Shown piece after piece: positions 16,896-37,490 of a stretch of DNA of 64,000 bases (its first letter is position 1; the number at the start of each line of letters is the position of its first letter). A program made the translations under genes and the position numbers. The notes under the pieces are model-generated. The model saw only the letters and a list, made by a program, of their open reading frames with translations. It was not told the origin of the DNA and made no database searches. Location: IMG/VR virus record IMGVR_UViG_3300028898_000252, positions 285,946 through 349,945 of that record; one strand, written 5' to 3'. This DNA is from a virus (Duplodnaviria > Heunggongvirae > Uroviricota > Caudoviricetes).

Positions 16896-17114
16896 TTTAT
16901 AGCTATTGGGGGTCCTTTGTAAAAAAAATTTCTCCCCAAAAAAATTTTCTCTCCCTGTAATTTGTGGGTTAAAATGAAACTATAAAAGAGTTTAAAATAG
17001 GTTTTCCCAAAAAAAATTTCCCTCCCTGAAGAACGTGGATTCATAAAAAAGAAAACTTTATAGCTATTGGGGGTCCTTTGTAAAAAAATTTCTCCCCAAA
17101 AAAATTTTTTCTCC
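16896..17114. repeat. About 58-bp direct repeat (16896-16954, 17057-17114) in A/T-tract DNA at the left island edge
   Basis: TTTATAGCTATTGGGGGTCCTTTGTA(7-8)TTTCTCCCCA7TTTT..CTCC twice. Confidence 0.9.
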
Positions 17115-17253
17115 TGGGAGAACGTGGATTAGCACGGTATATGCCAGGAATTACTTCAAAAACCCCCTAAAACCGCCCCCTAGGGGCCTCGTTTTTAACC
17201 CCTTGTTTAAGCCAGGGCCCATTTGCGGGTTGAAACCCCAGGCCCTGTATCCA

Positions 17254-17778
17254 TTATGTGGTTTCGATTTTCTTAAAGTCGTCTCCGAATCGAATGCGCT
17301 CACTTGTAACGCATTCGTCTGAATACTTCGAGAGAATCTTTTCGACGGCATCAATTCGGAGGTTGATTGCCTCGAATGTTTCTGTGTAGCGGTGAACGCG
17401 GATTCTGCGAGCCGTACAGGAATAGTTGTTAATCCCTGAATACTTCAATTCGTTTCTGTAACCAGTCACCGCTACTGGTTTACCAATGGGAGTAAGATGC
17501 TCGACATTTTGCTCGCCGTAACGTTCCCAGAACAAGTTTCGCCAGGAATAGCCTGTGCCGTTATCTCCGCTTCCGTAGAGCAAGTCGACTGCCGACATAA
17601 TGAGGTTGCCGATATCGCTGCTCATATCGTTGCAGTTTTTTGGAATTCGTTTTTCTCTATTCGAGATAGGATAGTCAGCTTCGAACAATGCGTTGTGTTT
17701 CATTGCAATTATATCGAGTGCCAACTCGACGATGGTAGAATCGTCCTCGGGAGTAACCTCCGTGAGTTTGTTTTCCAT
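17254..17778 (-). CDS. Hypothetical protein (island cassette)
   Basis: 174 aa, GGGAG RBS, follows element 17824. Confidence 0.75.
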   Translation of the reverse strand: MENKLTEVTPEDDSTIVELALDIIAMKHNALFEADYPISNREKRIPKNCNDMSSDIGNLIMSAVDLLYGSGDNGTGYSWRNLFWERYGEQNVEHLTPIGKPVAVTGYRNELKYSGINNYSCTARRIRVHRYTETFEAINLRIDAVEKILSKYSDECVTSERIRFGDDFKKIETT

Positions 17779-17865
17779 TTGAAATTGTTTCTCCCTTCTG
17801 TCTATCTCTTAGCACAATCCACGAAGGTTTATTTACCTTGCGAGAAGTATGCCAAGGGAAAGATA

Positions 17866-17900
17866 GAAAAGAAAACGACCCTGAGTGTATCAGGGTGGTT
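17866..17900 (-). terminator. Intrinsic terminator
   Basis: ACCCTGA-TACAC-TCAGGGT then CGTTTTCTTTT. Confidence 0.6.
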
Positions 17901-17928
17901 CTCTCGAAACGATCAAAGCGAGTTTGAT

Positions 17929-18168
17929 TCAGGGTGCCCGCTCGAAAACGGTTTCATCGTTGCGTCGAATTCGGAACTCTGCTGCGCTCAGGTGAGCGAA
18001 AGAACCACCGCGCCCGAATTCGGGGTGGGTTCCGTTGACGAGTTGTTTTGCGTAGCGAGCATCCTGCGCGTCGCGAATGGTTGCAAAATCCAACCATTTG
18101 CCATCGCGCTTGATTTGCGCAACGTCATATTCCTTGAAGGTGTATTCCGCGGGCTGTGTTTTGTGCAT
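17929..18168 (-). CDS. Hypothetical protein (island cassette)
   Basis: 79 aa, GAGG RBS, follows element 18214. Confidence 0.7.
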   Translation of the reverse strand: MHKTQPAEYTFKEYDVAQIKRDGKWLDFATIRDAQDARYAKQLVNGTHPEFGRGGSFAHLSAAEFRIRRNDETVFERAP

Positions 18169-18249
18169 AGTTTGAATTCCTCTCTCTGTGAATATGGTTT
18201 ACCACAATTCTTGGAGGTTTATTTACCTTTCAAGAAGTATGCCAGTCGA

Positions 18250-18684
18250 TCAGTCTTCGCTGATATCCTCCTCTGCCATATCTTTCAGATATGATTCGAA
18301 CGAGGGAGCATTCCAATCACATCCGTATTCGTAGTCGCCTCCGCCCTCGTAATCTTCTCGGTTTTCTCGCCTTTTGATGCGATCGAGACATTCGTTGAGC
18401 GTATACTTGCGAAACGACCTGTTTTTTTCTTCGGAGTAGTTCCGCTCTTCGATTTCCAGCGAACGAAAATCGAGTTCAGACTCTTCGGTTTTGAGCCACA
18501 TTTCTTGCTCGTCTTCGAGGGTTTCGTCGATTCCCTCGGCGATTGCTTGCTTCTCGGTAACACCTTGCGGGTTGCTGAATCGCAAAGTCTTTTCTCTGCG
18601 GCTGTTACCGAGAATGCGGTTAAGGGTAAACCTATCGTCAATATCGAGACGAGCAACAAAACCGCGGCGATGGTTGGTTTTCAT
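18250..18684 (-). CDS. Hypothetical protein starting MKTNHRRGF
   Basis: ATG 18684 with GGAAGG RBS, follows element 18728. Confidence 0.7.
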   Translation of the reverse strand: MKTNHRRGFVARLDIDDRFTLNRILGNSRREKTLRFSNPQGVTEKQAIAEGIDETLEDEQEMWLKTEESELDFRSLEIEERNYSEEKNRSFRKYTLNECLDRIKRRENREDYEGGGDYEYGCDWNAPSFESYLKDMAEEDISED

Positions 18685-18769
18685 TCTGTTGATCCTTCCG
18701 TGGTTATCTCTTACCACGTTTGGCTCTGAATTATTTACCTTGCAGGGACCGTGCCATCGCGGATTCTGA

Positions 18770-18816
18770 AAATAAAAAATGGGCTACTCGGGTGCTGGTT
18801 AGGCACTCGGTAGCCC
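18770..18816 (-). terminator. Intrinsic terminator
   Basis: GGGCTAC-CGAGTGC..GCACCCGA-GTAGCCC then ATTTTTTATTTT. Confidence 0.75.
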
Positions 18817-19003
18817 GTGAGCGGAAACGGAATCTCCGTTTATTTGTGGATTGAAGGGAGCACGTCGCGCGCTCAACCTCGGTTGAAGGGTAGGAAACAA
18901 CAGCAAGAGCGACGAATAGGGTTGCGATTGTTTAGCTCCTCTCTGTGTTTAGGTTTAGCACACCCTTGAAGGAATTATTTTCCTTTCAAGAGATATGCCA
19001 GTG

Positions 19004-19129
19004 TTAGCGGTTGCCGTTTTTGAGGTTGAGGGTTTCGGTTGCCTTTGCGATCATTCCACCAGCGACGAGCGCGGCGAACATCATCACGAAGGCGAAAGCT
19101 GCCCCGTTGGCGAACGTGTTAGCGATCAT
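19004..19129 (-). CDS. 41-aa single-TM peptide (not in ORF track)
   Basis: MIANTFANGAAFAFVMMFAALVAGGMIAKATETLNLKNGNR; AAGGA upstream. Confidence 0.55.
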   Translation of the reverse strand: MIANTFANGAAFAFVMMFAALVAGGMIAKATETLNLKNGNR

Positions 19130-19259
19130 GGGTTTGTGTGGTTTCCTTTCGCTGGCGACGAATCACCGCTGCAACCTCAACGATGCTGTAGGTTGTGCGC
19201 GCGATGGCGAGAATCAACAGAACGATCATAGAGAAATGGTTGTCGATGGAGGGTTCCAT
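19119..19259 (-). CDS. 46-aa hydrophobic peptide (not in ORF track)
   Basis: MEPSIDNHFSMIVLLILAIARTTYSIVEVAAVIRRQRK...; GAGG RBS after element 19300. Confidence 0.6.
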   Translation of the reverse strand: MEPSIDNHFSMIVLLILAIARTTYSIVEVAAVIRRQRKETTQTHDR

Positions 19260-19338
19260 TTGTTTTCCTCTCTGTGAGTATGTCTTAACATACCATTGAA
19301 GGATTTATTTACCTTTCAAGAGGTGTGCCAAGGTTTCG

Positions 19339-19569
19339 TCACTGGTCGGAAGGAAACCAACCCTTCACAACGGCGTTGTGGGCAATTCCAAGACGAAACA
19401 CCTGGGATCGTACTCGAATGCCGCTCGAAGCATTGAACACCTTGATTGAGGCATTCAGGGCGTTTGGGGCGGCATTCAGAGCAGCGGCGAACGCCTCGTG
19501 TTCGGTTGCTCCGAAACCGCTAGCGCTCAGTCCCGTTTGATTACGGGTCCATCGAAATTTACCTTGCAT
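19339..19569 (-). CDS. Hypothetical protein
   Basis: 76 aa; TAATG coupling with upstream ORF. Confidence 0.6.
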   Translation of the reverse strand: MQGKFRWTRNQTGLSASGFGATEHEAFAAALNAAPNALNASIKVFNASSGIRVRSQVFRLGIAHNAVVKGWFPSDQ

Positions 19570-19781
19570 TAGTTCATCACCCTTTCAGGTGCGGTTGAGG
19601 GATCGTGACCGAGGTTGAAAGCGGAGCGAAACAACTGTGCTTGCTCGCGCGTATCCGTGAAATGATCGAACACGGCCCCAGTCACGTCGGAGCGAAAACG
19701 GACCCTCCACATTTCACGCGGCGGGCGTTGGTTGCGAAGAAAAAACGCCTTCAACTTTTCGAGAAGTAACTTGTCGAGCAT
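19569..19781 (-). CDS. Hypothetical protein
   Basis: 70 aa; GGAGG RBS; follows element 19846. Confidence 0.7.
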   Translation of the reverse strand: MLDKLLLEKLKAFFLRNQRPPREMWRVRFRSDVTGAVFDHFTDTREQAQLFRSAFNLGHDPSTAPERVMN

Positions 19782-19928
19782 GACAACCTCCGTTCTGTTT
19801 GACCGTTTCGAATTCCCTTGTGAGTATGTCTTATCACACTCAGTTAAGGTTTATTTACCTTTCACAAACCATGCCAAGCACAGTTTATGAAAACTTTGTT
19901 TTCAAGACCTATGCCAGACTTTTGCCGC

Positions 19929-20312
19929 TCATGCAAACTTGCATGCCGACAAGGTTTTCATCACGGAATACATCCTGTCGATGACCGCGGGGACCTTTTT
20001 GTCGTTGTCGTGGTAAAACATGTTTGCGGCGAGAATAACATTTCTAATCGCCTTGCGCTTGTTCATTCCGACCGCGATATGCACCGCACCGCCACGAATT
20101 GCGATTGAACACCTCCAGCCGTGATCGCGTACGGCATCGAAAACAACATTGACAGGATTGACGCGATTGTTATTCAGCAGGTCGACCAATTTTTCGACCT
20201 TCGCGCCCCCGCTGTAAACCTCGATAACGGCGGCTTCGAGCAAGGTATTGAACCTTTGCTCTCTTGCTTCGATGGCTCGAAAGAATGCCTTGAATGATTC
20301 GAATTGTTCCAT
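19929..20312 (-). CDS. Hypothetical protein
   Basis: Start reassigned to MEQFESF with AAAGGG RBS. Confidence 0.65.
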   Translation of the reverse strand: MEQFESFKAFFRAIEAREQRFNTLLEAAVIEVYSGGAKVEKLVDLLNNNRVNPVNVVFDAVRDHGWRCSIAIRGGAVHIAVGMNKRKAIRNVILAANMFYHDNDKKVPAVIDRMYSVMKTLSACKFA

Positions 20313-20494
20313 TGTGAAACCCTTTCGTTGGAGAATGACAGCCGCAGAAATAGGATTTGCACCTACAGTTTCCTCTGTTTTGCAGAGGTTTTGGCCACGA
20401 TTCGGCACGGGACCTATTCCCGTTCTGCGGTATAGACTTGTTAACACAACCTCGAAGGTTTTATTTACCTTTCAAGAGGTGTGCCAACGAAGGT

Positions 20495-20707
20495 TTAGTC
20501 GTGATACCAAACATCCTCGCCGTGAATGTTTTTCGACGGAAAAACAACCGTATCCGTGTCCTCGTTGTGCTTCGTGACAGCGAACATCACCTTTCGCTGA
20601 GCGTTGCGCAGCACCTTGCGAGCAAAGCGCTTGAAACCATTGTGAAAGTGGCGATGGTGGGAGTCCTCGCTGCGAGCGGTGAATCCTCGACGGTGGTTCG
20701 TTTTCAA
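20495..20707 (-). CDS. Basic peptide starting MKTNHRRGF
   Basis: 70 aa, TTG start, GGGAG RBS, follows element 20750. Confidence 0.65.
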   Translation of the reverse strand: MKTNHRRGFTARSEDSHHRHFHNGFKRFARKVLRNAQRKVMFAVTKHNEDTDTVVFPSKNIHGEDVWYHD

Positions 20708-20844
20708 TTCCGTTCTCCCTTCTGTCTAGGTCTTAACACACTCTATCGTGAATTATTTTCCTTTCACGAATCGTGCCAAGGTTGACCAAGAGGCTGTCTC
20801 GGTGGGTTGAGGCATTCAGAATTAATTTCAAAATCTGTGCCGCG

Positions 20845-20874
20845 AAAATAAAAAAGCCCCGATTCGCTCGGGGC
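20845..20874 (-). terminator. Intrinsic terminator
   Basis: GCCCCGA-GCGAA-TCGGGGC then TTTTTTATTTT. Confidence 0.8.
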
Positions 20875-20912
20875 GTGGCGGGTTTGGTTATGTATCCAAA
20901 CCAATTGGTTTC

Positions 20913-21287
20913 TCAATCCTCGTTTTCCGACGAGAACGCGATCGAACGAATTCCGATCTCATGGTAGTTTTTCCATGAGAATGTCAGCCGCTTCGAATCG
21001 TCATCGCAGCCTTTCAAAACGACGTGCGTGCAATCCCCCGATTGCGTGACGACCGAAGCGACCTCCCACAATTGCGAGCCGTGCGCTCGCTTTCCCTTCA
21101 CTTCGAGAATGTCACCAACCTTGACGCGCGAAAGGATGATCCACACGGGATCGCGTCGCGTTCGGTCCGAAACTTGAAATTTTCGTTCGGTCAAGTCATC
21201 GTAGAGGCGGCGAGCCTTCGTGTTTTCATTCGCCCACGCGCGAAACGAACCGATGATTGCCGAGAGGATATCCTTGTTGTTGCTCAT
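20913..21287 (-). CDS. Hypothetical protein (possible SH3-like C-terminus)
   Basis: 124 aa; VKVGDILEV. Confidence 0.65.
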   Translation of the reverse strand: MSNNKDILSAIIGSFRAWANENTKARRLYDDLTERKFQVSDRTRRDPVWIILSRVKVGDILEVKGKRAHGSQLWEVASVVTQSGDCTHVVLKGCDDDSKRLTFSWKNYHEIGIRSIAFSSENED

Positions 21288-21335
21288 GTTTCTTTTCTCT
21301 TTTCTTTTCGTTGAAGTTGATTGAAGGGTTGGTTT

Positions 21336-21710
21336 TCAGAGAGAGAGGGCGAAAGCGATATCGAGAGCAACAGGGGTTTTGTTTTCCTCCGTTACTCCGT
21401 TGTACTTGATCGCGTGTTCCGCGAGGTTGTAGTGGTCAATCAATTCGACCTCGCAAGGTAGGGGAGTGTTGCAGGCGAGCCGCGTAATCGGAGGCATTTT
21501 TTTGTCTCCGAAAAGTTTTACCAACAAAAACTCTGTTCCGTATTGACCAGTGGAGGCGGAACTTGCGGTCAATTGGTAGACCGCAGAAACCTCTTTGCGG
21601 CCTTTCCGAAATGACAGCAAGAAAAACCTTGCAACCTTGACAAACACCGTAATCGAACAACCGAGTGTTTCGGTGTTGATTCGATCACCAACCTTGAAAA
21701 GATGGTTCAT
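21336..21710 (-). CDS. Hypothetical protein
   Basis: Start reassigned to MNHLFKVGD with AAGGGA RBS. Confidence 0.65.
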   Translation of the reverse strand: MNHLFKVGDRINTETLGCSITVFVKVARFFLLSFRKGRKEVSAVYQLTASSASTGQYGTEFLLVKLFGDKKMPPITRLACNTPLPCEVELIDHYNLAEHAIKYNGVTEENKTPVALDIAFALSL

Positions 21711-21866
21711 TCGTTTTTTCCCTTGTTGCTTGACGAAAACCTTGTCGGCGACTGGCTTATCGACAATAATTTTCTTGGGGTTGCGAGACAGGGTGATTCC
21801 TGGCCAGTTTCTATCTCTTATCACAGCTTTCAGCATTGAATTTTCCTTTCAAGCGCTATGCCAAGA

Positions 21867-22049
21867 TTACCTTTTCCGTTGTTTGATTTTCGAACCAGAG
21901 GGCACCACGAGAAACCATTCGAACCTGTTGACAATTGCATTCCAAACCTTGTATCTCCGAATCACTCTCGTGTAGAGAGCACCTTGACGCAGGGTTTCGA
22001 GGTATGAGTCGAACGGACCCAGGTGGTTTTCTGAATAACAGTCGCCCAT
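21867..22049 (-). CDS. Hypothetical protein
   Basis: 60 aa; AAGGTGA RBS; follows element 22101. Confidence 0.65.
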   Translation of the reverse strand: MGDCYSENHLGPFDSYLETLRQGALYTRVIRRYKVWNAIVNRFEWFLVVPSGSKIKQRKR

Positions 22050-22136
22050 TCGTTCACCTTCCCTTGCTGGCGTGTCTACCTCATATCACGATTGATTCTG
22101 TTTTATTTTCCTTGCAGGGATCATGCCAGCAGTGGA

Positions 22137-22355
22137 CTACTTCGAAACCTCAACTCCAATAATCAAAACCATCGGAGGCTCGCCTACAGAAGTCTCGAAA
22201 CCAGAAACTTTCGTCTGGAAAACTTCATCCTTCTCTGGATTATCCATGAGAGCTTCATTCAGTCGGAGGATCAACCTTTGCGCTTCATCACGCGAAAGGC
22301 CGATAACCAAACGATTTTTGAAAATCTCGTCTGCGGTTTTTTCCCAGTGCGCCAT
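22137..22355 (-). CDS. Hypothetical protein
   Basis: MAHWEK start, AAGGA RBS; follows element 22399. Confidence 0.65.
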   Translation of the reverse strand: MAHWEKTADEIFKNRLVIGLSRDEAQRLILRLNEALMDNPEKDEVFQTKVSGFETSVGEPPMVLIIGVEVSK

Positions 22356-22490
22356 GATCTTTTCCTTTCCGTGGTTATGATCTAACACATTCAGCTCTGA
22401 ATTATTTACCTTGCAGGGATCATGCCAACCACGGGAGATTGAGAATTATTTTCAAATTGCTGCGGCACAAAAAATGCAGGGCCAAAAACG

Positions 22491-22530
22491 ATAAAAGGGC
22501 AACCCGCTTGTTAAAGCGAAGTTGCCCCTT
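22491..22530 (-). terminator. Hairpin/terminator after the tRNA-ncRNA operon
   Basis: GGGCAAC-TTCGCTT..AAGCGG-GTTGCCC then TTTTAT. Confidence 0.65.
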
Positions 22531-22569
22531 TGGGTTTATTTACTTTGCAAACCGTGTGCCAACGTTTAG

Positions 22570-22644
22570 CGTCTCTGATAGGACTTGAACCTATGACCTA
22601 CCGCTTAGAAGGCGGTCGCTACTATCCAACTGAGCTACAGAGAC
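22570..22644 (-). tRNA. tRNA-Arg(UCU)
   Basis: GTCTCTG/CAGAGAC acceptor, TAGCTCAGTTGGATAG D arm, ACCGC-CTTCTAA-GCGGT, GGTTCAAGTCC; CCA not encoded. Confidence 0.92.
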
Positions 22645-22649
22645 AAAGC

Positions 22650-22732
22650 GTCTCGTAACGTTACTGTGCGCCGCTTACACTACGGTTTTGAGGCCGCGGA
22701 GAGTCGAACTCCGTCTGCAACGTTTCCGAGAC
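22650..22732 (-). ncRNA. Circularly permuted tRNA-like RNA (YrlA/Y-RNA-like)
   Basis: Order stem - T arm (CGGAG-TTCGACT-CTCCG) - closed acceptor hairpin - TA - D arm (GTGT-AAGCGGC-GCAC) - stem. Confidence 0.7.
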
Positions 22733-22919
22733 TGAAACAGTCTACAGGAGCACTGTTTCGATGTGCAGTCGATACGCAATCCGTCTCGTAACGTCATCGC
22801 GACGTTGGATTGTCCACTATTGGCAATCAACCTTTCGAGGTTGACTCTCGCTCTCGCCGCGAGAAGGCTAGTGGTGCTGAGAGCATATAATACCGACATA
22901 TCCCCTCGGTTAACGGGTT

Positions 22920-22988
22920 GACTGAGCGGTTTAACTGTTTAACCTAACAGGTTACCCTGTGCAGGATTCGCACCCGCATATCTCAGTC
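22920..22988 (-). ncRNA. Circularly permuted tRNA-like RNA (YrlA/Y-RNA-like)
   Basis: GACTGAG-ATAT-GCGGG TGCGAAT CCTGC-ACAGG GTAA CCTGT-TA-GGTT AAACAGTTA AACC-G-CTCAGTC. Confidence 0.72.
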
Positions 22989-23197
22989 GGTGTGATGGTG
23001 GTTTGTATTGTTTCACTAGCATTCAGTAACCATCGGTACCGAATGCCAGCGGCCACGATTTATTTAACCCAACACCGAGCATTGTGGCTTGTTTGGTATT
23101 GGACCACGGAATTATTCTCCGTGGATTTGCTTTCCTTAAATGGTGGAAAGCACGACAGCGTTTACGACTCCATACTATATGTCGCCTCTAGCATGAA

Positions 23198-23262
23198 TGG
23201 TGCTCTCATATGGACTCGAACCAATGCCTAGCAGCGCGGTTAAGCGCTCTAGGTATGAGAAC
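23198..23262 (-). ncRNA. D-armless tRNA-like RNA with encoded ACCA
   Basis: GTTCTCAT/ATGAGAGC-ACCA, CCTAG-AGCGC-TTAACC-GCGCT-G-CTAGG, TGG-TTCGAGT-CCA. Confidence 0.7.
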
Positions 23263-23387
23263 ATGTTTTATGTTAAGGAATCTATCGTTTTGACGTTGTT
23301 GCCCCGATCGCCTCGCTCTCTCTGTCTACATTCTAGCGCGACCGAGCAAGGTTTATTTACCTTTCAAGTATCGTGCCAGGGAAAAGG

Positions 23388-23516
23388 GTACCGCCGCGGG
23401 AATCGAACCCGCTTTAGACGTTCTAGCCAACGTCTAAATCTCCAAGGTAGAACCCCATAGTTTTATCGGTGCTTGACTAGAGCGCCCGCTATGTTGTCTA
23501 ACTTTAGGTAGCGGTA
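23388..23516 (-). ncRNA. 129-nt tRNA-like RNA (acceptor + T arm + two long hairpins)
   Basis: TACCGCT/GGCGGTA, GCGGG-TTCGATT-CCCGC, TTTAGACGTT/AACGTCTAAA. Confidence 0.65.
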
Positions 23517-23519
23517 TAG

Positions 23520-23602
23520 TGCCAGCAACGGGACTTGAACCCGTATGCCCTTGCGGACGGCGGATTTTGAATCCGCTGCGTATTCCATTCCGCCACGCTG
23601 GC
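23520..23602 (-). tRNA. tRNA-Leu(CAA)
   Basis: GCCAGCG/TGCTGGC-A, GCGGA-TTCAAAA-TCCGC, long variable arm GTCC-GCAA-GGGC, GGTTCAAGTCC. Confidence 0.93.
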
Positions 23603-23949
23603 ATTTGTTCTGCAATCTCGTTTGCAGAGGACGATACCGAGACACATTCTAATATGCGGCTCGATATTAACACGCTGGGATGACACAATGATCATCCGTG
23701 TGGTACAGCTTAGTTTGATATGTGTACCTAGTTCACAGCCCGCGGTTTTCATTGGCTGCAAAACAAGTTGTGCCAGTCACTTAGCCCGTGTTTGCAGGAT
23801 ACGCGCACGCCGACTAGCTTACGCTCGCGTTTCCGACGTATGGGATATATTACCGTTCACTCGCTTTCCTTTTCGTTGCTGCCCGCCCCATGAATCTCTC
23901 TTACCACACCCGAGCAAGGTTTATTTCCCTTGCAAGCGCTATGCCAGGG

Positions 23950-24189
23950 TCAGAGCGCGACCACCGCGAGGGTTTCGCGACCGTTTTCCCACGGGCAGAG
24001 CCACGCTTTCGCGTAGCCGTTGGGTGCTTGCACGATCACGGGATTACGGGGCGACGCCCGTTTCGCGCGGCAAGCGCGGACGATTTTGTCCACCCCAGAA
24101 TCGATAGAATAGTGAGTCACGAATGTAGCTGCCGTTTCGTTGAACTCGAACACCACTGCTTTCGAATCGTTCACTTTTGCATCCTCCAT
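23950..24189 (-). CDS. Hypothetical protein
   Basis: 79 aa between elements 24221 and 23916. Confidence 0.6.
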   Translation of the reverse strand: MEDAKVNDSKAVVFEFNETAATFVTHYSIDSGVDKIVRACRAKRASPRNPVIVQAPNGYAKAWLCPWENGRETLAVVAL

Positions 24190-24254
24190 CCCCCATAATC
24201 TTATGTTAGTACAACCGAGCAGGGTTTATTTACCTTGCACAAGCCATGCCAGAG

Positions 24255-24617
24255 TTAGACCTTGGCGGAATCCTCCGCTCGACGAATAACCCACCATTCG
24301 GTTCCCGCGCCGTCGCGGTCGATTTCACCCACAAGGATGAATTCATTGCTGAGCATATCCATAAACACGCCCTCCCATGCCCCGCGGGTTGTTCGAACGG
24401 ACACACCGAGGATTCTGGAAAACTCAGCCGCAGCCGCAGATTTTCTGACTACGGACGAAAGATTTGTCTTCCGAACGTCGATCTTTCCGCCGCCGCTCAA
24501 TTCGAGCTCGAAACCCTCTTGGGTTTGCTCGATCGCAGTCACGGGAATGAATTCGAGATTCAACCGTTGACGAGCGACGATATTCAAATCGAGACCATCC
24601 GACACAATGCAGTCCAT
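24255..24617 (-). CDS. Hypothetical protein
   Basis: 120 aa, AAGGG RBS, follows element 24669. Confidence 0.7.
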   Translation of the reverse strand: MDCIVSDGLDLNIVARQRLNLEFIPVTAIEQTQEGFELELSGGGKIDVRKTNLSSVVRKSAAAAEFSRILGVSVRTTRGAWEGVFMDMLSNEFILVGEIDRDGAGTEWWVIRRAEDSAKV

Positions 24618-24710
24618 TGTTTGAAACCCTTTCTTCGTTGGTGTGTTCTCTGTATAGCAGACCCTAGCAAGGTTTATTTACCTTGCAATCGGTATGCCAA
24701 GGATGATTAG

Positions 24711-24781
24711 TAGGTCCAGAAGGAATCGAACCTTCGTTAACTGGTTAAAAGCCAGCTACTCTACCATTGAGTTATGGACCC
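24711..24781 (-). tRNA. tRNA-Lys(UUU)
   Basis: GGGTCCA/TGGACCT-A, GCTGG-CTTTTAA-CCAGT, GAAGG-TTCGATT-CCTTC. Confidence 0.93.
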
Positions 24782-25130
24782 TTAGAGCGCCGCTGTTTAC
24801 CAACGATTCCCCGTATGCGGGGCAACCTCGGGACAGCGGGCGGTTTTGCACCATTCTTTTATTCGTTTTAGGCCGAATCACACCCGTTAGGTAGCTATCG
24901 GCCTATCGTTTACGACGATACATCAGCGTTTCCTCTTCGCTATATTATTAGAACCTACGCATGCGCGCGGTAGGCTTATGGGTTCGAGGTAGTGAATGCG
25001 GAATGACCCGCGCCCGTATCGTGTTGGCAGCGTGCGGTTTCGCTCGGTATCCGCTGCTAGTTTTACCGATCGACTAGCAACCGCTCAGTGGAGCGGCTGA
25101 CAAGGTGTGTGTAGCACGACTCGGCAGGGT

Positions 25131-25469
25131 TTATTTACCTTGCACCGTCTGTGCCAGCGGGACGCCGCCCGACCACGGGGCATCGTCGATCATTTCGAAA
25201 ATGGTTTGAATTTCCTCGACTGAAAGAGTGGTGTCGTGATACCACTCCGTCAACCTTCGGTCGAAAGCGTCGGCAAGGTCGCGGGTTTCAGCGAATTCGA
25301 ATTCGACCTCTTCGAACATCGAATTGTAAAACCTCGGAGGTTGCTCGCCATTTGCCGCGCGGTGTTCGATGATCGCCTGCTCGCATTCTCCCACGAATTC
25401 GGCGAGTTGTTCTCGCGAATAACCGCGGAGTTTCAGCGTTTGCAATTCTGAGAGATTCTTCGTCGACAT
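25131..25469 (-). CDS. Hypothetical acidic protein; stop codon supplied by the next element
   Basis: MSTKNL start; ends LAQTVQGK-TAA, the translation of element 25126-25156. Confidence 0.65.
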   Translation of the reverse strand: MSTKNLSELQTLKLRGYSREQLAEFVGECEQAIIEHRAANGEQPPRFYNSMFEEVEFEFAETRDLADAFDRRLTEWYHDTTLSVEEIQTIFEMIDDAPWSGGVPLAQTVQGK

Positions 25470-25546
25470 TTTCTTTCGTTGCTCCTCTCTGTGGGTATGT
25501 CTTACCACACCCTTGAAGGAATTATTTACCTTGCAAGCGGTGTGCC

Positions 25547-25579
25547 AAAAAAAATAGGCTTGGAATAGATCCGAAGCCT
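25547..25579 (-). terminator. Intrinsic terminator
   Basis: AGGCTT..AAGCCT then ATTTTTTTT. Confidence 0.65.
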
Positions 25580-25769
25580 CTCACCATTCGTTATATCGCC
25601 TTCAACCGCAAGTTAACTTAATAACTCGCTGAATGGCCGCACTCCCAGGCATCGCGCTATGGACTAGCCTTATGGTTGCGCTTTGTTATGGCCGCTTGCA
25701 CGGTTTGGTTGAAGCAATGCCGTTATCCAACGGCGGTATTGGCTTGACAGAGAATCCTGTTCTCTGTCA
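25580..25769 (-). ncRNA. Candidate structured ncRNA downstream of tRNA-Ile
   Basis: No minus-strand ORF; long-range pairing TTGCTTCAACC/GGTTGAAGGCGA plus two hairpins. Confidence 0.45.
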
Positions 25770-25846
25770 TGGTAGGCGTAAATGGACTCGAACCATTGAC
25801 CCCACGGTTATAAGCCGTGTGCTCTAACCGACTGAGCTATACGCCC
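25770..25846 (-). tRNA. tRNA-Ile(UAU)
   Basis: GGGCGTA/TACGCCT-ACCA, CACGG-CTTATAA-CCGTG, AATGG-TTCGAGT-CCATT. Confidence 0.9.
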
Positions 25847-26037
25847 AACGAATGCGGCCTCGCCTTATTCAGCGCCCGCGGTGAATGCTAACCAGCTTGT
25901 CACGGCCAGTGCATTATTTTACCTGCTTTCCGTATCGTTGCGGGTTGAGGTTTTGAGGCAACCTTGCTCGTTGCCCCGTGAGTATGTCTTAGCACGACTC
26001 GGCAGGGTTTATTTGCCTTGCACCGTTCGTGCCAGGG

Positions 26038-26346
26038 TTACGCCAGCTTCGACCACGCCAGCGCGAACAAACGCACGGCGAAAGCCAGGGCGAAAACCGC
26101 AGCGCTCACCCTTGCAATCCCCAGCGCGTTTTTTGACGTTCCGTAACCGTACTCGGACGCAAGAAAACTGTTTGTCAGCCTCTCAGCGATCATGGAAACC
26201 ACGAAAAGCGATCCAAACAACAACAGGTGTTGTCCTGCGGAGAGCGAGAGAAACATCCCGAAAAACGTTCCGATCGCGCCCGAAGCGATGGCGAGCACAA
26301 GCAACACAGCCGCCGCGACTGCGGCGAAAACCTTACCAAAGGTCAA
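26038..26346 (-). CDS. Small multi-pass membrane protein
   Basis: About 3 hydrophobic segments; TTG start just after the upstream stop (start uncertain). Confidence 0.6.
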   Translation of the reverse strand: MTFGKVFAAVAAAVLLVLAIASGAIGTFFGMFLSLSAGQHLLLFGSLFVVSMIAERLTNSFLASEYGYGTSKNALGIARVSAAVFALAFAVRLFALAWSKLA

Positions 26347-26348
26347 GG

Positions 26349-26729
26349 TTACGACCTTCGCGAGTGTGACGCGCGCTGGAGAATCGGAAGACCAAGAACA
26401 CCACTCGGTCCAACCTTTGCAAACGCATCGGTTTGCTCGTTGCCGCGTTCGCCAGGGACGAAAAGCGTCACCTCGGCATAGCGGTTGCTGTGCCCCGCGC
26501 AGCACTTGGTTTCACTCGAAACCGTTGCGCGCCAGTCAGAAGCGGAAAAAAACTTTTCCGTTTCCTTTCCCGCAGCGTCGTGTCGGATCACTTCGACCGC
26601 GTAGCGCTCCAATTGGAGCCGTTCGCGGAGTTCATCGGCGTGCATTTCCGCCGCTGTGCGTGTGTCGAGCTCCATTCCTTCATCGAAGGAAACATCGCCA
26701 CTGTCTGAACCATTCACTTCGATCGTCAT
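26349..26729 (-). CDS. Hypothetical protein
   Basis: 126 aa, GGAGGT RBS, follows element 26797. Confidence 0.7.
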   Translation of the reverse strand: MTIEVNGSDSGDVSFDEGMELDTRTAAEMHADELRERLQLERYAVEVIRHDAAGKETEKFFSASDWRATVSSETKCCAGHSNRYAEVTLFVPGERGNEQTDAFAKVGPSGVLGLPILQRASHSRRS

Positions 26730-26831
26730 TGCCTACCTCCATGTAGGGTTGCTAGAGGTTATCTCCAGCAACAACTTTTGAATAACACAACCCTCGAAGG
26801 TTTATTTACCTTGCAGGGATCATGCCATTCT

Positions 26832-26892
26832 TGGAGGGCTTGGGAGAATCAAACTCCCCGCAAAGTTTTTGCTTTGCGAACCATTAAGCCCT
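26832..26892 (-). ncRNA. Minimal tRNA-like RNA (acceptor + T arm + one hairpin, TCCA end)
   Basis: GGGCTT/AAGCCC-TCCA, GGGAG-TTTGATT-CTCCC, GCAAAG-CAAAAA-CTTTGC. Confidence 0.55.
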
Positions 26893-26897
26893 TGCGG

Positions 26898-27380
26898 TCA
26901 CTCCGCTAGTGCCGCCTGAATCTCGGAAAGTTTCTTCTCGAAGGTGAAACGAGTTTCGAAACGCTCGCACACTTCGCGCAATTCCTCGAAACCACTCGCG
27001 ATTTGTTCGAGCGAATCGGGGTCAACCTCGTTGGGCGCGGTGCGGTCGACCAGCTTCGCATACTCGGTCAACTCGATTCCGAATTGAGCGCCGCGCCAAT
27101 CTCCGTTAGCGTCGCGGTAGTTGAGCACACGCTTTTCGAGCGCGTACATGATCGCGCCGTCCACATCACCCGCCTTTTGCGCGGTGCGCAGCTCGACCAG
27201 CTTCCGATACGACGCGCGCAGGTTTTCCACACCCGCGACGATCATATCAAACTTCTCGTCGACATTCGCGTTTCGAAACGCCGCCAAGTTTTCGAGCGGC
27301 TTGTGCTTGCACGCGTCGAACGAGCGCGTGGCTTCGAGAAGAGCCGCCTTATCTGCAACAACAACAACGTTCGTTCCCAT
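26898..27380 (-). CDS. Hypothetical helical protein
   Basis: MGTNVV start; GC3-rich codons; follows element 27467. Confidence 0.7.
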   Translation of the reverse strand: MGTNVVVVADKAALLEATRSFDACKHKPLENLAAFRNANVDEKFDMIVAGVENLRASYRKLVELRTAQKAGDVDGAIMYALEKRVLNYRDANGDWRGAQFGIELTEYAKLVDRTAPNEVDPDSLEQIASGFEELREVCERFETRFTFEKKLSEIQAALAE

Positions 27381-27612
27381 TTTTTTCTTTTGCTCCAATG
27401 TTTGAAAAACCGTTCACTTGCTGTGTGAGCACCGTTGCTCACACTCTCTACTTAGCACAACTCGACAAGGTTTATTTACCTTGCAGGGTTCATGCCAAGC
27501 GTGGCACTTCCGCCGAGGGTTGCACTCGGCATAGCTATTGCTTGTTAGCTTTAGCTATCGTGTCCTGGTGACACCGAAAGTGTTTTGTTCTGCCCCTTTC
27601 GGGGCGAGGGTT

Positions 27613-28236
27613 TCAACCCTCGGCGGTTTCGTCGTCGGTCGCAGCGTCGAGCGCTTCGAGCGCGGGCGAATTGCTCAGGTCGGTTGCAGCCGCGCCAGCA
27701 AACCGCGACGGAGGCGCGGAAAGCGCGACGACACGCGCCGTGCGCGCAGGCTTCGCGGGCTTGGGAGCCTCGGGAGCCTTGGGTTTGATTCCGAGCATCG
27801 CAGCGACCGAGGTTTGCGGCGCGTTGGGATTGATTCGCGCGATTCCCGCGCACTCCATTGCAGCGCGGAAGGTTTCGATCAGTGACAGCGCCTCGATCGC
27901 GCAACCCGCGCTATCGCGCGAGTGGAGCACGAAAACGTTGTCGCGACCGATGACCTCACTGCCGTACACGACCTCGCCGCGAACGATGCGAAGCAACAGC
28001 GTCGAGCCCGCCGTGTCCGAGTTTGGCCCGCCGCGCGCGGCGCGCACGCCTTCGAGCAGCGCGAGCGCCGAGCCGCCTTCGTCATCGGTCAAGCGGAACA
28101 TCACGGGCTCTTGTGGCTCGATCCACAGATCAGACTTCGACGCGTCGCCGCCCTCGCCGCACTGCTCGCGAACGTGCGCAACGAGCGCCGCGAGAACCAT
28201 TCCAGCGACAACCGAACGAACAGAATTCTTGCTCAT
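27613..28236 (-). CDS. Hypothetical protein with A/P-rich disordered C-terminus
   Basis: MSKNSV start; follows element 28332. Confidence 0.7.
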   Translation of the reverse strand: MSKNSVRSVVAGMVLAALVAHVREQCGEGGDASKSDLWIEPQEPVMFRLTDDEGGSALALLEGVRAARGGPNSDTAGSTLLLRIVRGEVVYGSEVIGRDNVFVLHSRDSAGCAIEALSLIETFRAAMECAGIARINPNAPQTSVAAMLGIKPKAPEAPKPAKPARTARVVALSAPPSRFAGAAATDLSNSPALEALDAATDDETAEG

Positions 28237-28331
28237 GTTTTTTTCTCTCTTTTCTTTCGTTTTGTGAACTCGCGAGCACCGCAACCGTGCGGTGCATCAT
28301 CTCTTGTGAATCTCTCTTAGCACGACTCGGC

Positions 28332-28362
28332 AAGGTTTATTTACCTTGCACCGTCTGTGCCA
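28332..28362 (-). promoter_or_regulatory. Representative sigma54-type -24/-12 promoter
   Basis: TGGCACAGACGGTGCAAGGTAAATAAACCTT; GG-N10-GC; upstream of the ORF starting at 28236. Confidence 0.75.
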
Positions 28363-28532
28363 ACCTAACAACCATCGAAACTCACGTTCGCAGGTTAGGT
28401 GGGATGGTACGAATGTTGTTTGTTCGTGCCGTCCCGTCTACTCTGCAACCGATACCCTGTCATGTGCTCTGTCTAGCACACTCTCGGAAGGTTTATTTAC
28501 CTTTCAAGTATCGTGCCAGGACAGTTTCAGGC

Positions 28533-29054
28533 TCAGTCGTCATCGGCAGCATCGAAAAACTTGCCGATCGCGAGGAATTCACCGCGAGTGCAAGCGGCGT
28601 GCCACTCAGGATTCGAGCCCGTCCCGTTTGGAATCGGGCTGAAATTCAATTTCTGTACCATCGTGCGGCGTGCTTTGAATTCGGCGAATCCTGGGAATTC
28701 AACCGAAGCAAGCACCGCGCCGTTGTTTTTCGACCAGTCGTAAAAGTACCGTTGTTTTCCGACGGCACCGTCGTCGGCCAGTGGGGCAACAACGAGACAG
28801 CTTGTTCCTCGCGCCCCGCGTGAGGAATGATTCCCCAGCAAAATGAATCGCCGCTTGTTGATTCGCACAGTTGAATACTTTGGCGCTGCTTTTGCAGCAA
28901 GCACCGTATCCCGCTGAAACTCGCTGAATTCATCGTAGTCAGGCGAATCCCGCTTGATTCGCCCCTGGCGAGCACCTTCGCCTGCGGTACAGTCAAGGTC
29001 GAGCCTTTCAGGCTCGACAACATTGTCATTGTCATTGTCGTTTTCGTTTGCCAC
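28533..29054 (-). CDS. Hypothetical protein
   Basis: GTG start with GAGGAG RBS; NDNDND microrepeat; follows element 29098. Confidence 0.7.
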   Translation of the reverse strand: MANENDNDNDNVVEPERLDLDCTAGEGARQGRIKRDSPDYDEFSEFQRDTVLAAKAAPKYSTVRINKRRFILLGNHSSRGARGTSCLVVAPLADDGAVGKQRYFYDWSKNNGAVLASVEFPGFAEFKARRTMVQKLNFSPIPNGTGSNPEWHAACTRGEFLAIGKFFDAADDD

Positions 29055-29296
29055 TCGCTGTGCTCCTCTCTGTGAATCTCTCTTAGCACGACCGACCAAG
29101 GTTTATTTACCTTGCAGGGTTTGTGCCAACAACCTTGGTCGTTGGAGTTTCGAGCGAAACGCGGCGATCGTCCGTCCCGCCCTGTGTTCTCTGTCTAGCA
29201 CAACCCAAGGTGCTTTATTTACCTTGCAAGCATCATACCAGGGTTGGGCGTTTGGCGCGGTGCGAGCCTCTATCGACCGCGCGTACACGCGTGCGT

Positions 29297-29370
29297 AGCA
29301 TAAACCATGCCAGGTAAGACTACCTAAAAAAACCGTTGGCATGATACTTGCAAGTGGCATGGTTTATGCC
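29297..29370. promoter_or_regulatory. Divergent cluster of three GG-N10-GC boxes at the right island edge
   Basis: Minus 29297-29312; plus 29337-29352 and 29355-29370; perfect 15-bp inverted repeat 29298-29312/29355-29369. Confidence 0.75.
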
Positions 29371-29485
29371 TTCGCGGGGCAACCCTCAACCGTTACCATA
29401 TATGGCAGTATGAAACACCTAAACATTTAGTGAAATGAAATTTAATGAAACTAGGTATGAATTTTATTTGTACTAAGGTTTAGAG

Positions 29486-29959
29486 TTAAACTTTGTATTT
29501 TATAAAAAGAGTTTCGAGTTTTGTTTTAAGTTCTGGATAATGATAAAGGAAACTTTTATTCTTTTTTGGATCAAGGAGTCTTTCGTAAATTTGTTTGTAT
29601 GAGTTTCTCTCAAGCCACGAGAGATAAGCTGAAATAAACTTATCATCTTCGAGATAGTCAAACAAAGTGACTTCAACCATTTCAAAAAATGTTTCTTTGT
29701 CGAGTTTAATTGTTTTGGAGCATATTAGAGCATAATATGCACAAAGTTTTTTGATAAGAAACTCATCATTTTCAAAATCAAGAACTTGTGGTTTTTGGGC
29801 TTTGGGAGAGGAAGTATTCCAGTTTTGGGAAACAATTATTGTCGATTGTGATTCATGTGCGGTAATTGTGTTATAAGAAGGGTCAAACAAAATGGCACGG
29901 TAATCACAACCTGTAAATGTTTTAACAAAGGTTTTGAGTTCTTTGTTTTCAAGTTTCAT
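29486..29959 (-). CDS. Hypothetical protein
   Basis: MKLENK start with AAGGAGG RBS. Confidence 0.75.
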   Translation of the reverse strand: MKLENKELKTFVKTFTGCDYRAILFDPSYNTITAHESQSTIIVSQNWNTSSPKAQKPQVLDFENDEFLIKKLCAYYALICSKTIKLDKETFFEMVEVTLFDYLEDDKFISAYLSWLERNSYKQIYERLLDPKKNKSFLYHYPELKTKLETLFIKYKV

Positions 29960-30121
29960 TGTTTTGTTGCCTCCTTTTTTTGATTGTTTTGTTTCAACCC
30001 AAACTCTTATTGTTTTGGGTTGATTTATCTTAGCCGCAAACCTTATAAAAGGTTTGGGATTTAAGCTTTGAATTAATATGATAAACATTTAGTATTTTGA
30101 CCCTCCCCTCCCCTTAAAAGA

Positions 30122-31300
30122 TTAATTCTTTTTAGAGTTAAGCTGCGAAAGGTTTTCTTCAAGGGCTTGGTCAATAACTTGCAAAGTATCTCTAAACTGT
30201 TGAGTAAAACTATCAGTAAGGGCTTTGAATTCTTTCTTGAGATTCACATTATCGTTTTCGGCGGAATACCATTCGATTCTGAATCTATCAATAACTTCTG
30301 AATACTGGGAAAGGAATTCAAGTCCTTCGCAGATTGATTTATCAAACACTTCAATTGGATAGTTTCTCAGGTCGAGGCCGTTTGCCTTGAACAAGTTTTC
30401 GTAGGCAAACTTTGCAAGAAACTTTCCAATGAAGCCGAATTGATCTGTAACCTCTTCTTCGTTGTTTATTTCAATAGAAGGAATATAAACAGTCCATTTA
30501 TCAAGTGGAGAAATAAGAGTTTTGTTATCGTCTCTTGCCGATGATCCTGCGTCGGCGAATCGCATAATAACAAATGGTCCATATTGACCATCCCCAGAAT
30601 AAACTTGATAACCAACCATTCCTTTCGGAAAAGGATTCTTTCCTCGCTTTGCCGCGACAGAATAGTTGATTCCAAGGTTCATGTTTCGATAATCAGACCT
30701 TCTTTTCGATTCTTTCCATTCTGCCTTTTTAATATTGTTTTCAATTTCGATTTGCTGAAGGTGTTTGTTGTACAGATTCATAATCTCTTCATCGGCATCA
30801 ACTTCAACAAAAAGACCATCCTTTTTAAAGGATTTTCCTTTGTAGAAAACAGGAGGCAAATAAACATTACTTGTTTGAATGTGTTCAGCTGCAAACTTTT
30901 TTTCTTCTTTAAGATAGTAGGTGATAACAAGACTGTCATTATTCAAACCATCATAGTAATATGAATTCATTTCAACATTCACAATTGGATTTGATGGGTC
31001 GATAATATATTTCTCTGTGACTGAAATCCAGCCATATTTGTTGACGATTGGTTCTTGTGCCTGAAACATTTCAAGATACTTTTTTTGGATTGCCTCGAAT
31101 TCTTCTTTCTCGTGCAAGTAATACACAGGGGAATTTGAACATGTTTCATAGTTTTTCAATTCCTCTTCGGTCATTTCGTTTCTGCGGCGAACTCTCTTTT
31201 CGACAAGTTCGCTGTAATTCAGTTTTTTTCTCAATTCCTCGTGAGCTTTGTATGCAGGGTTTTCATCCGTTCGGAACACACTCAACGACTTTGCGACCAT
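30122..31300 (-). CDS. Hypothetical protein under the outlying element 31407
   Basis: 392 aa, GGGAG RBS. Confidence 0.8.
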   Translation of the reverse strand: MVAKSLSVFRTDENPAYKAHEELRKKLNYSELVEKRVRRRNEMTEEELKNYETCSNSPVYYLHEKEEFEAIQKKYLEMFQAQEPIVNKYGWISVTEKYIIDPSNPIVNVEMNSYYYDGLNNDSLVITYYLKEEKKFAAEHIQTSNVYLPPVFYKGKSFKKDGLFVEVDADEEIMNLYNKHLQQIEIENNIKKAEWKESKRRSDYRNMNLGINYSVAAKRGKNPFPKGMVGYQVYSGDGQYGPFVIMRFADAGSSARDDNKTLISPLDKWTVYIPSIEINNEEEVTDQFGFIGKFLAKFAYENLFKANGLDLRNYPIEVFDKSICEGLEFLSQYSEVIDRFRIEWYSAENDNVNLKKEFKALTDSFTQQFRDTLQVIDQALEENLSQLNSKKN

Positions 31301-35823: not shown

Positions 35824-35947
35824 TTCTATGTTCTCTTTGATTCTGCCGTTTTCAATAATATGAACCGTTCCAACAAACTCTTTTGGAATTCTTTCTTTTG
35901 ATGTTAAAAACAGCGTCTTTTCATTTTCTGGGTATCCTCTTAAACTA

Positions 35948-37437: not shown

Positions 37438-37443
37438 ATTACC

Positions 37444-37472: not shown

Positions 37473-37490
37473 CGACAAGAGTCAAATATT

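Follow-up and report, generated by a model that had tools for sequence, protein, structure and literature searches.

Transfer RNA (tRNA) mimics, such as transfer-messenger RNA (tmRNA), Y RNAs, and viral tRNA-like structures, act as regulators, and the tRNA genes carried by phages counter tRNA-cleaving defenses. The subject of this analysis is tl1, the name given here to a 65-nt RNA at positions 23198-23262, minus strand, of the window, that is, of the whole 64,000-nt stretch analyzed, which covers bases 285946-349945 of a 390,884-bp jumbo-phage genome in IMG/VR with direct terminal repeats and 33% G+C. Studied from sequence alone, tl1 possesses the accepting half of a tRNA and has no D arm or anticodon loop; consequently, it probably mimics a tRNA and does not decode. 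The favored reading, held with slightly less than even confidence, is that tl1 is a functional, processed, non-decoding tRNA mimic belonging to a small phage-specific family that includes a diverged paralogue, tl0. The closest described system in topology is the tRNA-like domain of tmRNA, while the closest in theme is YrlA together with other Y RNAs.

The tRNA-like domain of tmRNA (SsrA), a molecule processed by RNase P, has an acceptor of 7-9 bp, no D stem, a long helix replacing the anticodon arm, and a T arm with T loop and a 3' ACCA, all of which are also found in tl1. However, tl1 has U3-A70 instead of G3:U70, contains neither an mRNA-like tag frame nor pseudoknots, and measures 65 nt compared with about 360 nt. 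No tmRNA is reported by ARAGORN, and Rfam gives only a 13.6-bit match to a T-arm fragment, located on a neighboring RNA, tl2. YrlA and other Y RNAs (RF02553) are non-coding tRNA mimics, as tl1 is read here. In M. smegmatis, the tRNA-like module of YrlA has a 7-bp acceptor; RNase P cleaves this module, and CCA is added to it (PMC4201824). YrlA modules are circularly permuted, keep the D arm, and are carried on a Ro60-binding stem, whereas tl1 is unpermuted and lacks the D arm. RF02553 has no match on tl1, the weak match in the region being a neighboring module at 22918-22990; no Ro60 (TROVE) gene lies beside tl1, and PF05731 has no match in the whole phage.

Non-canonical 8/4 and 9/3 tRNAs (Mukai et al. 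2017, PMC5389517) occur in certain bacteria and their phages; they are cloverleaf tRNAs that emerged when selenocysteine tRNAs were sought. Like the 9/3 tRNAs, tl1 has a 12-bp acceptor/T stack split 9 + 3, both in the minimum-energy fold and in RNAalifold; unlike the 8/4 and 9/3 forms, it has no complete cloverleaf, no D arm, and no anticodon. Both forms reportedly decode, having kept the D arm and an anticodon loop of 7 nt. The D-armless mitochondrial tRNAs of nematodes and other metazoa share with tl1 only the missing D arm. These tRNAs decode; they retain an anticodon stem of 5 bp with its 7-nt loop and have a D-replacement loop, whereas tl1 has a linker of 0-2 nt, a 10-bp stem, a 6-nt loop, and no three-base anticodon.

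Two further groups may resemble tl1 in their biogenesis. The tRNA cluster of phage T4 encodes species 1 and 2 (rnaC, rnaD), which are small stable RNAs, longer than tl1, that are co-transcribed with tRNAs and matured by tRNA-processing enzymes. The mascRNA of MALAT1 and the tRNA-like RNAs of murine gammaherpesvirus 68 (MHV68) measure about 60 nt and are not charged; RNase P or RNase Z excises them, and they receive CCA. They are of eukaryotic or animal-virus origin and form a cloverleaf with a D arm, and no homology to tl1 is implied. tl1 departs in a defining feature from each family with which it was compared, namely tRNA, tmRNA, YrlA, the 8/4 and 9/3 tRNAs, and the mitochondrial D-armless tRNAs. 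A full-text literature search found no description of D-armless tRNA-like RNAs in phages and, as far as the searched databases show, RNAs of the tl1 kind are restricted to one jumbo-phage lineage. If a conserved phage RNA keeps only the acceptor/T half of a tRNA together with a second helix of tRNA length, it would represent a minimal tRNA mimic, and its possible actions on the host, whether as decoy, inhibitor, or scaffold, are undescribed for phages in the literature searched.

Fold and detection of tl1

Read along the minus strand from 23262 to 23198, tl1 is GUUCUCAUA-CCUAGAGCGC-UUAACC-GCGCU(G)CUAGG-CAU-UGG-UUCGAGU-CCA-UAUGAGAGC-ACCA. Its minimum free energy is -26.8 kcal/mol, compared with -14.8 +/- 3.0 for 200 dinucleotide shuffles (z = -4.05), none of which is as stable. 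In this fold, a 9-bp acceptor helix directly abuts a long stem of 10 bp, which is followed by the T arm and by an encoded, single-stranded ACCA. The same fold is recovered independently by RNAalifold from five sequences in a 356-nt context. The 5' strand of the acceptor (GUUCUCAUA, nt 1-9, 23254-23262) pairs with 23202-23210, forming 9 bp by both methods. The long stem, which is supported by the fold and by the variants described below, is formed by CCUAGAGCGC (nt 10-19, 23244-23253) and GCGCU-G-CUAGG (nt 26-36, 23227-23237), contains one bulged G (G31, at 23232), and is capped by the 6-nt loop UUAACC (nt 20-25, 23238-23243), which is the same in all five variants. The linker CAU and the T arm UGG-UUCGAGU-CCA (nt 37-52, 23211-23226) come next; the T stem has 3 bp, and the canonical loop UUCGAGU fits the consensus UUCRANY, with G53-C61 as closing pair. 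The molecule ends with the 3' strand of the acceptor, UAUGAGAGC, the discriminator A, and CCA (nt 53-65, 23198-23210), all invariant in relatives.

The initial annotation of this locus had described an 8-bp acceptor, an ACCA end, a TTCGAGT T loop, no D arm, and a CCTAG-AGCGC stem with the 6-nt loop TTAACC in place of a 7-nt anticodon loop. Each of these features is present, the acceptor extending to 9 bp in the minimum-energy fold. No D arm was found in tl1, as the 5' strand of the acceptor leads into the long stem through a linker of 0-2 nt, and the 10-bp bulged stem with its 6-nt loop is not the 5-bp stem with 7-nt loop of an anticodon arm. The tRNA-type features that tl1 does have are the acceptor GUUCUCA(UA)/(UA)UGAGAGC, the T arm GG-UUCGAGU-CC with its UUCRANY loop, and the ACCA end. 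Acceptor and T stem together provide 12 stacked layers, as in tRNA, split 9/3. Judging from standard tRNA geometry, the long stem would roughly match the combined length of the D and anticodon helices where these stack in a tRNA. The T arm resembles that of the tRNA-Ile(UAU) encoded in the same region.

The standard mode of ARAGORN makes no call at tl1, as had been anticipated, and the Rfam tRNA model RF00005 leaves it unmatched even at E <= 10 in a 15.5-kb search. In contrast, the relaxed mitochondrial mode of ARAGORN reports a 'D-loop mtRNA' with precisely the bounds of tl1, its anticodon consisting of 2 bases in the 6-nt loop. A loose descriptor, combining a G[TG]TCRANNC loop with a 7-bp acceptor, gives 9-25 chance matches per shuffled genome, and adding CCA would lower this to about 0.2 per genome by rough arithmetic, this last figure not being scored in shuffles. 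Beyond the descriptor, tl1 has an acceptor containing G+C, a 10-bp stem, and real tRNAs around it. The z-score of the fold, the outcome of the descriptor scan, and the conservation of the RNA across independent assemblies rule out a chance or artefactual origin. Standard tRNA finders overlook such genes in jumbo-phage tRNA clusters, tl0 and tl1 both being uncalled.

Variants of tl1 and the paralogue tl0

Relatives were collected by a metagenome scan with the promoter pattern of the region and by look-ups of contigs encoding the neighboring small proteins. This yielded about 20 contigs of the same lineage, from activated-sludge and other unlabelled samples, with about 85-100% identity where aligned. 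tl1 is complete in 11 further contigs, which come from relatives with about 88-100% identity in their island sequences, and its 3' part is present in one more. Including the window copy, there are five distinct sequences, all of them of the short form and all retaining the fold. All four substitutions among them keep pairing and are confined to the long stem, within its upper five pairs: contig L018 has C-G for G16-C29 and, in addition, U for C27 (G.U), contigs L037, L044, and L045 have U for C17 (U.G), and contig L049 has U for C29 (G.U). L044 carries an additional 1-nt insertion beside the bulge. The acceptor, the T arm, both loops, and the ACCA are invariant. The L037 copy differs from the window copy at 1/65 positions, although identity over the surrounding 1.7 kb is about 88%, and the neighboring tRNA-Arg changes at more positions than tl1 does. 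As far as the compared sequences can indicate, this pattern of substitution fits purifying selection.

A covariance model built from the five tl1 variants, R1, scores tl1 itself at 100.5 bits and finds a second member of the family, tl0, at 35.7 bits (E = 2e-6). tl0 lies outside the window, at genome positions 35187-35262 on the minus strand (L059:7188-7263). It is a D-armless RNA of 76 nt situated between tRNA-Asn and tRNA-Gly in the AT-rich main tRNA cluster, and ARAGORN makes no call there in any mode. Its sequence reads GCUGUUU UC UCUAG-AAUAAAAGA-AAUAAACCC-UCUUUUGUU-(G)-CUAGA CAUUGGUUCAAGCUCAUG AAACAGC GCCG. The two RNAs have in common the D-armless plan and the base of the long stem, CUAGA / U(G)CUAG, including the bulged G with its flanking U and CUAG. 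The core CUAGA...U(G)CUAGR-CAUUGGUUCRAG is identical at 16/18 positions, its part CAUUGGUUCRAG occurring in both. Outside the core the two RNAs differ. Four of the seven acceptor pairs are not the same, of which three have changed on both sides yet remain paired, and the acceptor of tl0 is compensated throughout; the ninth acceptor pair fails in tl0, which leaves an 8 + 3 stack; and the distal hairpin has been replaced outright, with 9 bp and a 9-nt loop in tl0 versus 5 bp and a 6-nt loop in tl1. U3-A70 is found in tl0 and tl1 alike.

When tl0 is added to the tl1 alignment, 99.2% of cells are paired, 7 pairs are changed on both sides, and 0/500 shuffles reach any of the covariation measures. 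tl0 occupies an ORF-free cassette (ORF, open reading frame) of its own, bounded by a second repeat family, ATAnAGAAACTTCCTTCTA...CTAGTTTCTTTGCTCTC. Logan relatives carry an identical tl0, although the cassette upstream of it is a different one in them. As both tl1 and the diverged tl0 have the D-armless form, this form is old and has been maintained twice. The initial annotation had named a full tRNA in relatives, recently deprived of its D arm and without conservation of the short form, as the finding that would speak against it. This objection falls away because the relatives share and keep the short form, the substitutions preserve the structure, and the old paralogue is D-armless too. A recent D-arm deletion is ruled out by the short form in relatives, by tl0, and by covariation. 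After tl0, the best matches of R1 are tRNA-Ile(UAU) genes, both in the same phage and in a distant relative, and these matches suggest that the tl1/tl0 family probably descends from a tRNA-Ile-like gene.

A separate, post hoc observation concerns the distal loop of tl0 (genome 35240), which contains AAATAAACC, the same 9-mer as in the core AAGGTAAATAAACC of the promoter repeats discussed below. Outside the GC-rich island that carries tl1, that strand has 8 occurrences of this 9-mer, compared with about 4 expected.

Possible roles of tl1

From the fold, conservation, covariation, paralogy, and genomic context described here, we infer a course of expression, processing, and target binding for tl1. 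Transcription would start from a promoter-like element at 23330-23378, making tl1 the first module of a precursor of about 800 nt, free of ORFs and ending in tRNA-Arg. The acceptor/T stack of 9+3 bp, the T loop, the U at position -1, and the ACCA would make the 5' end a substrate for host RNase P, and owing to the same features tl1 would also be open to 3' trimming and CCA repair, a stable RNA of 65 nt being the expected product. It is plausible that tl1 is processable in this way, given its 12-layer stack, canonical T loop, U at -1, and encoded ACCA. In the mature RNA, the 10-bp stem would replace the stacked D and anticodon helices at about the same length. Since the stem takes that place, the molecule would have tRNA-like dimensions, with no elbow contact, no anticodon, and no decoding; tl1 cannot decode. 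Selection appears to act on the junction and T-arm core as well as on the geometry of the helices, and because these are what is preserved, a shape mimic acting in trans is favored. tl1 would then occupy a protein or ribonucleoprotein whose reading of tRNA shape relies on the acceptor/T minihelix and the junction. Candidate targets include a tRNA-directed defense effector of the host or a tRNA-processing or tRNA-modification enzyme, for which tl1 could serve as a decoy or sponge. This decoy step is plausible, and it is the least secure part of the favored reading.

The more specific roles proposed initially fare less well. A decoy for anticodon nucleases is disfavored because the conserved part is the junction with the T-arm core and not the distal loop, which has 6 nt in tl1 and 9 nt in tl0 and is anticodon-like in neither. 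The suggestion that tl1 might be chargeable finds no support either. Aminoacylation as a conserved function is unlikely because G3:U70 is absent and because the paralogues differ in the discriminator (A73 in tl1, G73 in tl0) and in acceptor sequence, so that no shared synthetase identity set is visible. Aminoacylation by alanyl-tRNA synthetase is ruled out by the absence of G3:U70.

A broader version of the favored reading, regarded as somewhat unlikely, is that the phage maintains a dedicated family of anticodon-less, D-armless mimics, comprising tl0, tl1, perhaps tl2 and tl3, and two possible permuted mimics, all matured by tRNA enzymes of the host and acting as decoys or inhibitors of a factor by which the host senses or attacks tRNAs. 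If true, this would amount to an RNA-based arsenal for counter-defense or translation control, housed in an island of shuffling cassettes with its own sigma-54-like promoters. The case is a tractable one, as two paralogues with a shared 18-nt core are available together with natural compensatory and cassette-loss variants in metagenomes.

Several observations weigh against reading tl1 as a functional mimic. Homologue covariation, which the initial annotation had proposed as a check, is obtained with tl0 in the alignment and is not obtained within tl1 alone, where 100% of cells are paired, a single pair is compensatory, and 100/500 shuffles do equally well; this is not significant because all tl1 variants are at least 95% identical. 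Moreover, tl1 and tl0 were aligned by fitting to the model, and most of the signal comes from a single sequence. The comparative depth is shallow, consisting of copies at least 95% identical and one paralogue only. The leader and the 200 nt downstream are as conserved as tl1, and therefore conservation does not single out tl1 as the functional unit. The T stem of tl1 has only three Watson-Crick pairs, its two outer pairs being mismatched, and in tl0 the T loop UUCAAGC with its closing pair G.U is less canonical than its counterpart in tl1. The discriminator and 3' end are ACCA in tl1 and GCCG in tl0, so a target directed at the CCA end is not clearly conserved. Finally, genes for Ro60 (TROVE, PF05731), RtcB, and a CCA-adding enzyme are absent from the phage genome, and no candidate partner was found.

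The equal conservation of the leader and of the RNAs downstream is also what would be expected if tl1 were a cis-acting processing or stability element. According to this unlikely but best-placed alternative, the fold is no more than a signal for RNase P and for the 3' end: it would cut the polycistronic precursor, define where the adjacent leader or the RNAs downstream end, or protect 3' ends, and the 65-mer, once released, would do nothing by itself. Such 'tRNA punctuation' has precedents in MALAT1/mascRNA and in the tRNA-miRNA units (miRNA, microRNA) of MHV68. The arrangement of the region fits in part, as tl2, tl3, tRNA-Arg, and tRNA-Lys lie within 4-11 nt of the next promoter repeat and thereby form cassette 3' ends, and tl3 directly follows an ORF stop. 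However, tl1 is located on the 5' side of its cassette, the 3' end of which already has a real tRNA, and tl0 holds a cassette of its own without an ORF. In addition, a cleavage signal alone needs neither a bulged-G junction nor a 10-bp stem kept in two diverged paralogues.

An antisense or kissing-loop regulator built on a tRNA scaffold, for which the model is C4, an RNA that RNase P processes in phages P1 and P7, is considered quite improbable. In such a regulator, the distal loop (UUAACC in tl1, AAUAAACCC in tl0) would pair with an RNA or display a motif. The loop of tl1 is invariant while the stem below it varies, UAA(A)CC occurs in the loops of both paralogues, the tl0 loop includes AAATAAACC from the core of the island promoter repeat, and the tl1 loop could form 5/6 pairs with the tl2 loop GGCUAG. 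Against this, a complementarity of 6 nt is far too short to carry significance, TTAACC occurs 188 times in the genome, and AAATAAACC is present 8 times where about 4 are expected; no target was identified, and these observations were made post hoc.

The history of the family also permits the view that tl1 is a decaying pseudogene, a tRNA-Ile-like gene that lost its D arm and is carried along in a hyperplastic region. Its T arm closely resembles that of the island tRNA-Ile(UAU), tRNA-Ile genes follow directly after tl0 among the matches of R1, the two outer pairs of the T stem are mismatched, and phage tRNA clusters do hold degenerate tRNAs, a mini tRNA-like remnant at genome positions 37705-37766 among them. 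Decay is nevertheless very improbable, given that every relative keeps the short form with structure-preserving changes only, that the long-diverged tl0 retains the unusual plan with compensatory changes, and that tl1 evolves more slowly than the neighboring functional tRNA-Arg. That tl1 is an odd decoding or chargeable tRNA, serving frameshifting through its 6-nt loop, doublet decoding, or the supply of an amino acid for non-ribosomal use, has a close to negligible probability: the encoded ACCA, the A73 and C4-G69 that presumably match tRNA-Ile in the identity elements of isoleucyl-tRNA synthetase (IleRS), the D-loop tRNA form assigned by relaxed ARAGORN -mt, and the CUA suppressor tRNA of the phage speak for it, but tl1 has no D arm, 7-nt loop, or U33/R37 frame, its stem has 10 bp, G3:U70 is absent, and tl0, with a 9-nt loop, G73, and a different acceptor, conserves neither anticodon nor identity.

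The cassette island and its other RNAs

The tl1 cassette runs along the minus strand from the promoter-like element at 23330-23378 to the next such element at about 22560. The element, TGGCAC-N5-TTGAA-AGGTAAATAAACC...GCGCTAGAAT, is one of 25 co-oriented copies in the island, and tl1 is the first structured RNA downstream of it, in agreement with the initial annotation. The two are separated by a leader of 67 nt (23263-23329, minus strand), which ends in ...AAAACAU before G1 and is kept in relatives, with indels confined to an A-run 5' of G1. Directly 3' of the ACCA lies a hairpin, UUCAUGCUA...UAGUAUGGA (23169-23197, minus strand), predicted by RNAalifold, in which L044 changes one pair from U-A to C-G. 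The rest of the cassette (22570-23168, minus strand) contains further hairpins, with about 180 nt conserved after the 3' hairpin, a YrlA-like match, more hairpins, a permuted candidate, and, as the last element, tRNA-Arg(UCU) (22570-22644, minus strand). No convincing ORF was found in the tl1 cassette, and the ORFs that overlap it are not called as genes in a public protein collection.

The YrlA-like match at 22918-22990 on the minus strand, 210 nt downstream of tl1, is weak (RF02553, 25.1 bits, E = 0.12, against a gathering score of 69). The window copy of this module has a 25-nt insertion in its closing stem that is absent from L018, L037, L044, and L045. The segment 22650-22732 on the same strand could be a second circularly permuted tRNA mimic (fold z = -2.2). 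In the cassette upstream of that of tl1, the last element is tl2 (131 nt, 23386-23516, minus strand), with tRNA-Leu immediately before it; its acceptor has 7 bp and its T arm 5 bp, and the 6-nt loop GGCUAG closes a 10-bp stem. L018 shows compensatory changes in the acceptor and T stem of tl2, and its T loop is non-canonical there. Farther away, tl3 (61 nt, 26832-26892, minus strand; z = -3.3) is D-armless, with a 7-bp acceptor, a 7-nt linker, a 7-bp stem with a 6-nt loop, a T arm, and CCA. It is located between an ORF stop and the next promoter repeat and is present in L038 and L039, the T loop UUUGAUU being UUCAAUU in L039; the tl3 cassette is missing from L019. With tl2, tl3, and the permuted candidates nearby, tl1 thus belongs to a group of candidate tRNA mimics that would share their transcripts with tRNAs.

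ARAGORN finds 21 tRNAs in the phage genome, 17 of them at 12-61 kb and 4 in the window. One of the 17 is a suppressor whose anticodon is CUA (genome 61455-61527, plus strand, outside the window; ARAGORN label 'Pyl'), which may indicate TAG recoding in part of the phage. The four window tRNAs (Arg-UCU, Leu-CAA, Lys-UUU, and Ile-UAU) share with tl1 a single, sharply bounded island. The island extends over about 17.1-29.4 kb of the window (17100-29400), has 45-63% G+C, and has its last repeat copy at 31435. Its cassettes are headed by the 25 co-oriented copies of a 49-nt element, TGGCAY-N5-yTGmA-AGGTAAATAA-N17-TGTGCTAAGA, the first part of which has the form of a sigma-54 -24/-12 promoter. Several copies show covariation between the spacer and the sequence that follows TAAATAA, the two forming a hairpin. 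ORF-free leaders of about 300 nt precede tRNA-Lys (24790-25100) and tRNA-Leu (23603-23895) on the minus strand; Rfam gives no match to these leaders, which could represent additional structured RNAs.

The element was found nowhere else in the phage genome, and no sigma-54 gene was found in the phage. Its pattern has 0 matches in IMG/VR and only 13 unrelated single matches in prokaryote (GTDB) genomes. The core of the tl1/tl0 family likewise has 0 matches in IMG/VR, the gapped core pattern giving one chance match inside a coding region. Distant jumbo-phage relatives were found through a flanking protein of 1416 amino acids (aa). The loci fetched around the gene for this protein contain no GC-rich island, and the four distant records searched whole, among which the 383-kb relative behind L004 is not included, contain no promoter repeat. 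In these four records, R1 finds only a normal tRNA-Ile(UAU), in the 322-kb record. As for the proteins of the island, five ORFs tested against Pfam have no match, 19 tested against PHROGs give a single marginal match (E = 0.0012), and the neighboring protein P0011 has only two clusters and no deeper relatives.

An assembly chimera is ruled out as the origin of the island by independent metagenome and Logan contigs that cross both borders into the AT-rich flank; L047 spans the left border at 100% identity and L019 the right border at 88.8%. Whole-cassette differences occur among the relatives over window positions 21800-30200, L019 lacking 26828-28486, L030 lacking 22700-23050, and L044, L045, and L051 carrying an extra gene of 79-80 aa. 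The comparison of these contigs suggests recombination between promoter repeats. Near the island, the window also encodes an MnmA-like tRNA 2-thiouridylase (PF03054, E = 5.5e-65, 36376-37485, minus strand) and an RNA ligase (PF09414 with a PHA02142 OB fold, 51191-52288, minus strand).

In the main tRNA cluster, outside the window, the second repeat family, ATAnAGAAACTTCCTTCTA-N15-22-CTAGTTTCTTTGCTCTC, has at least 5 copies at genome positions 34973-37419 on the minus strand (L059), which head cassettes holding a single tRNA or tl0. The mini tRNA-like element at 37705-37766, also on the minus strand and outside the window, lies near tRNA-Asp. It has a 7-bp acceptor (CUCCAAG/CUUGGAG), a 6-bp T stem with the loop UUCAAGU, and an unstructured middle of 27 nt, and it may be a degenerate tRNA.

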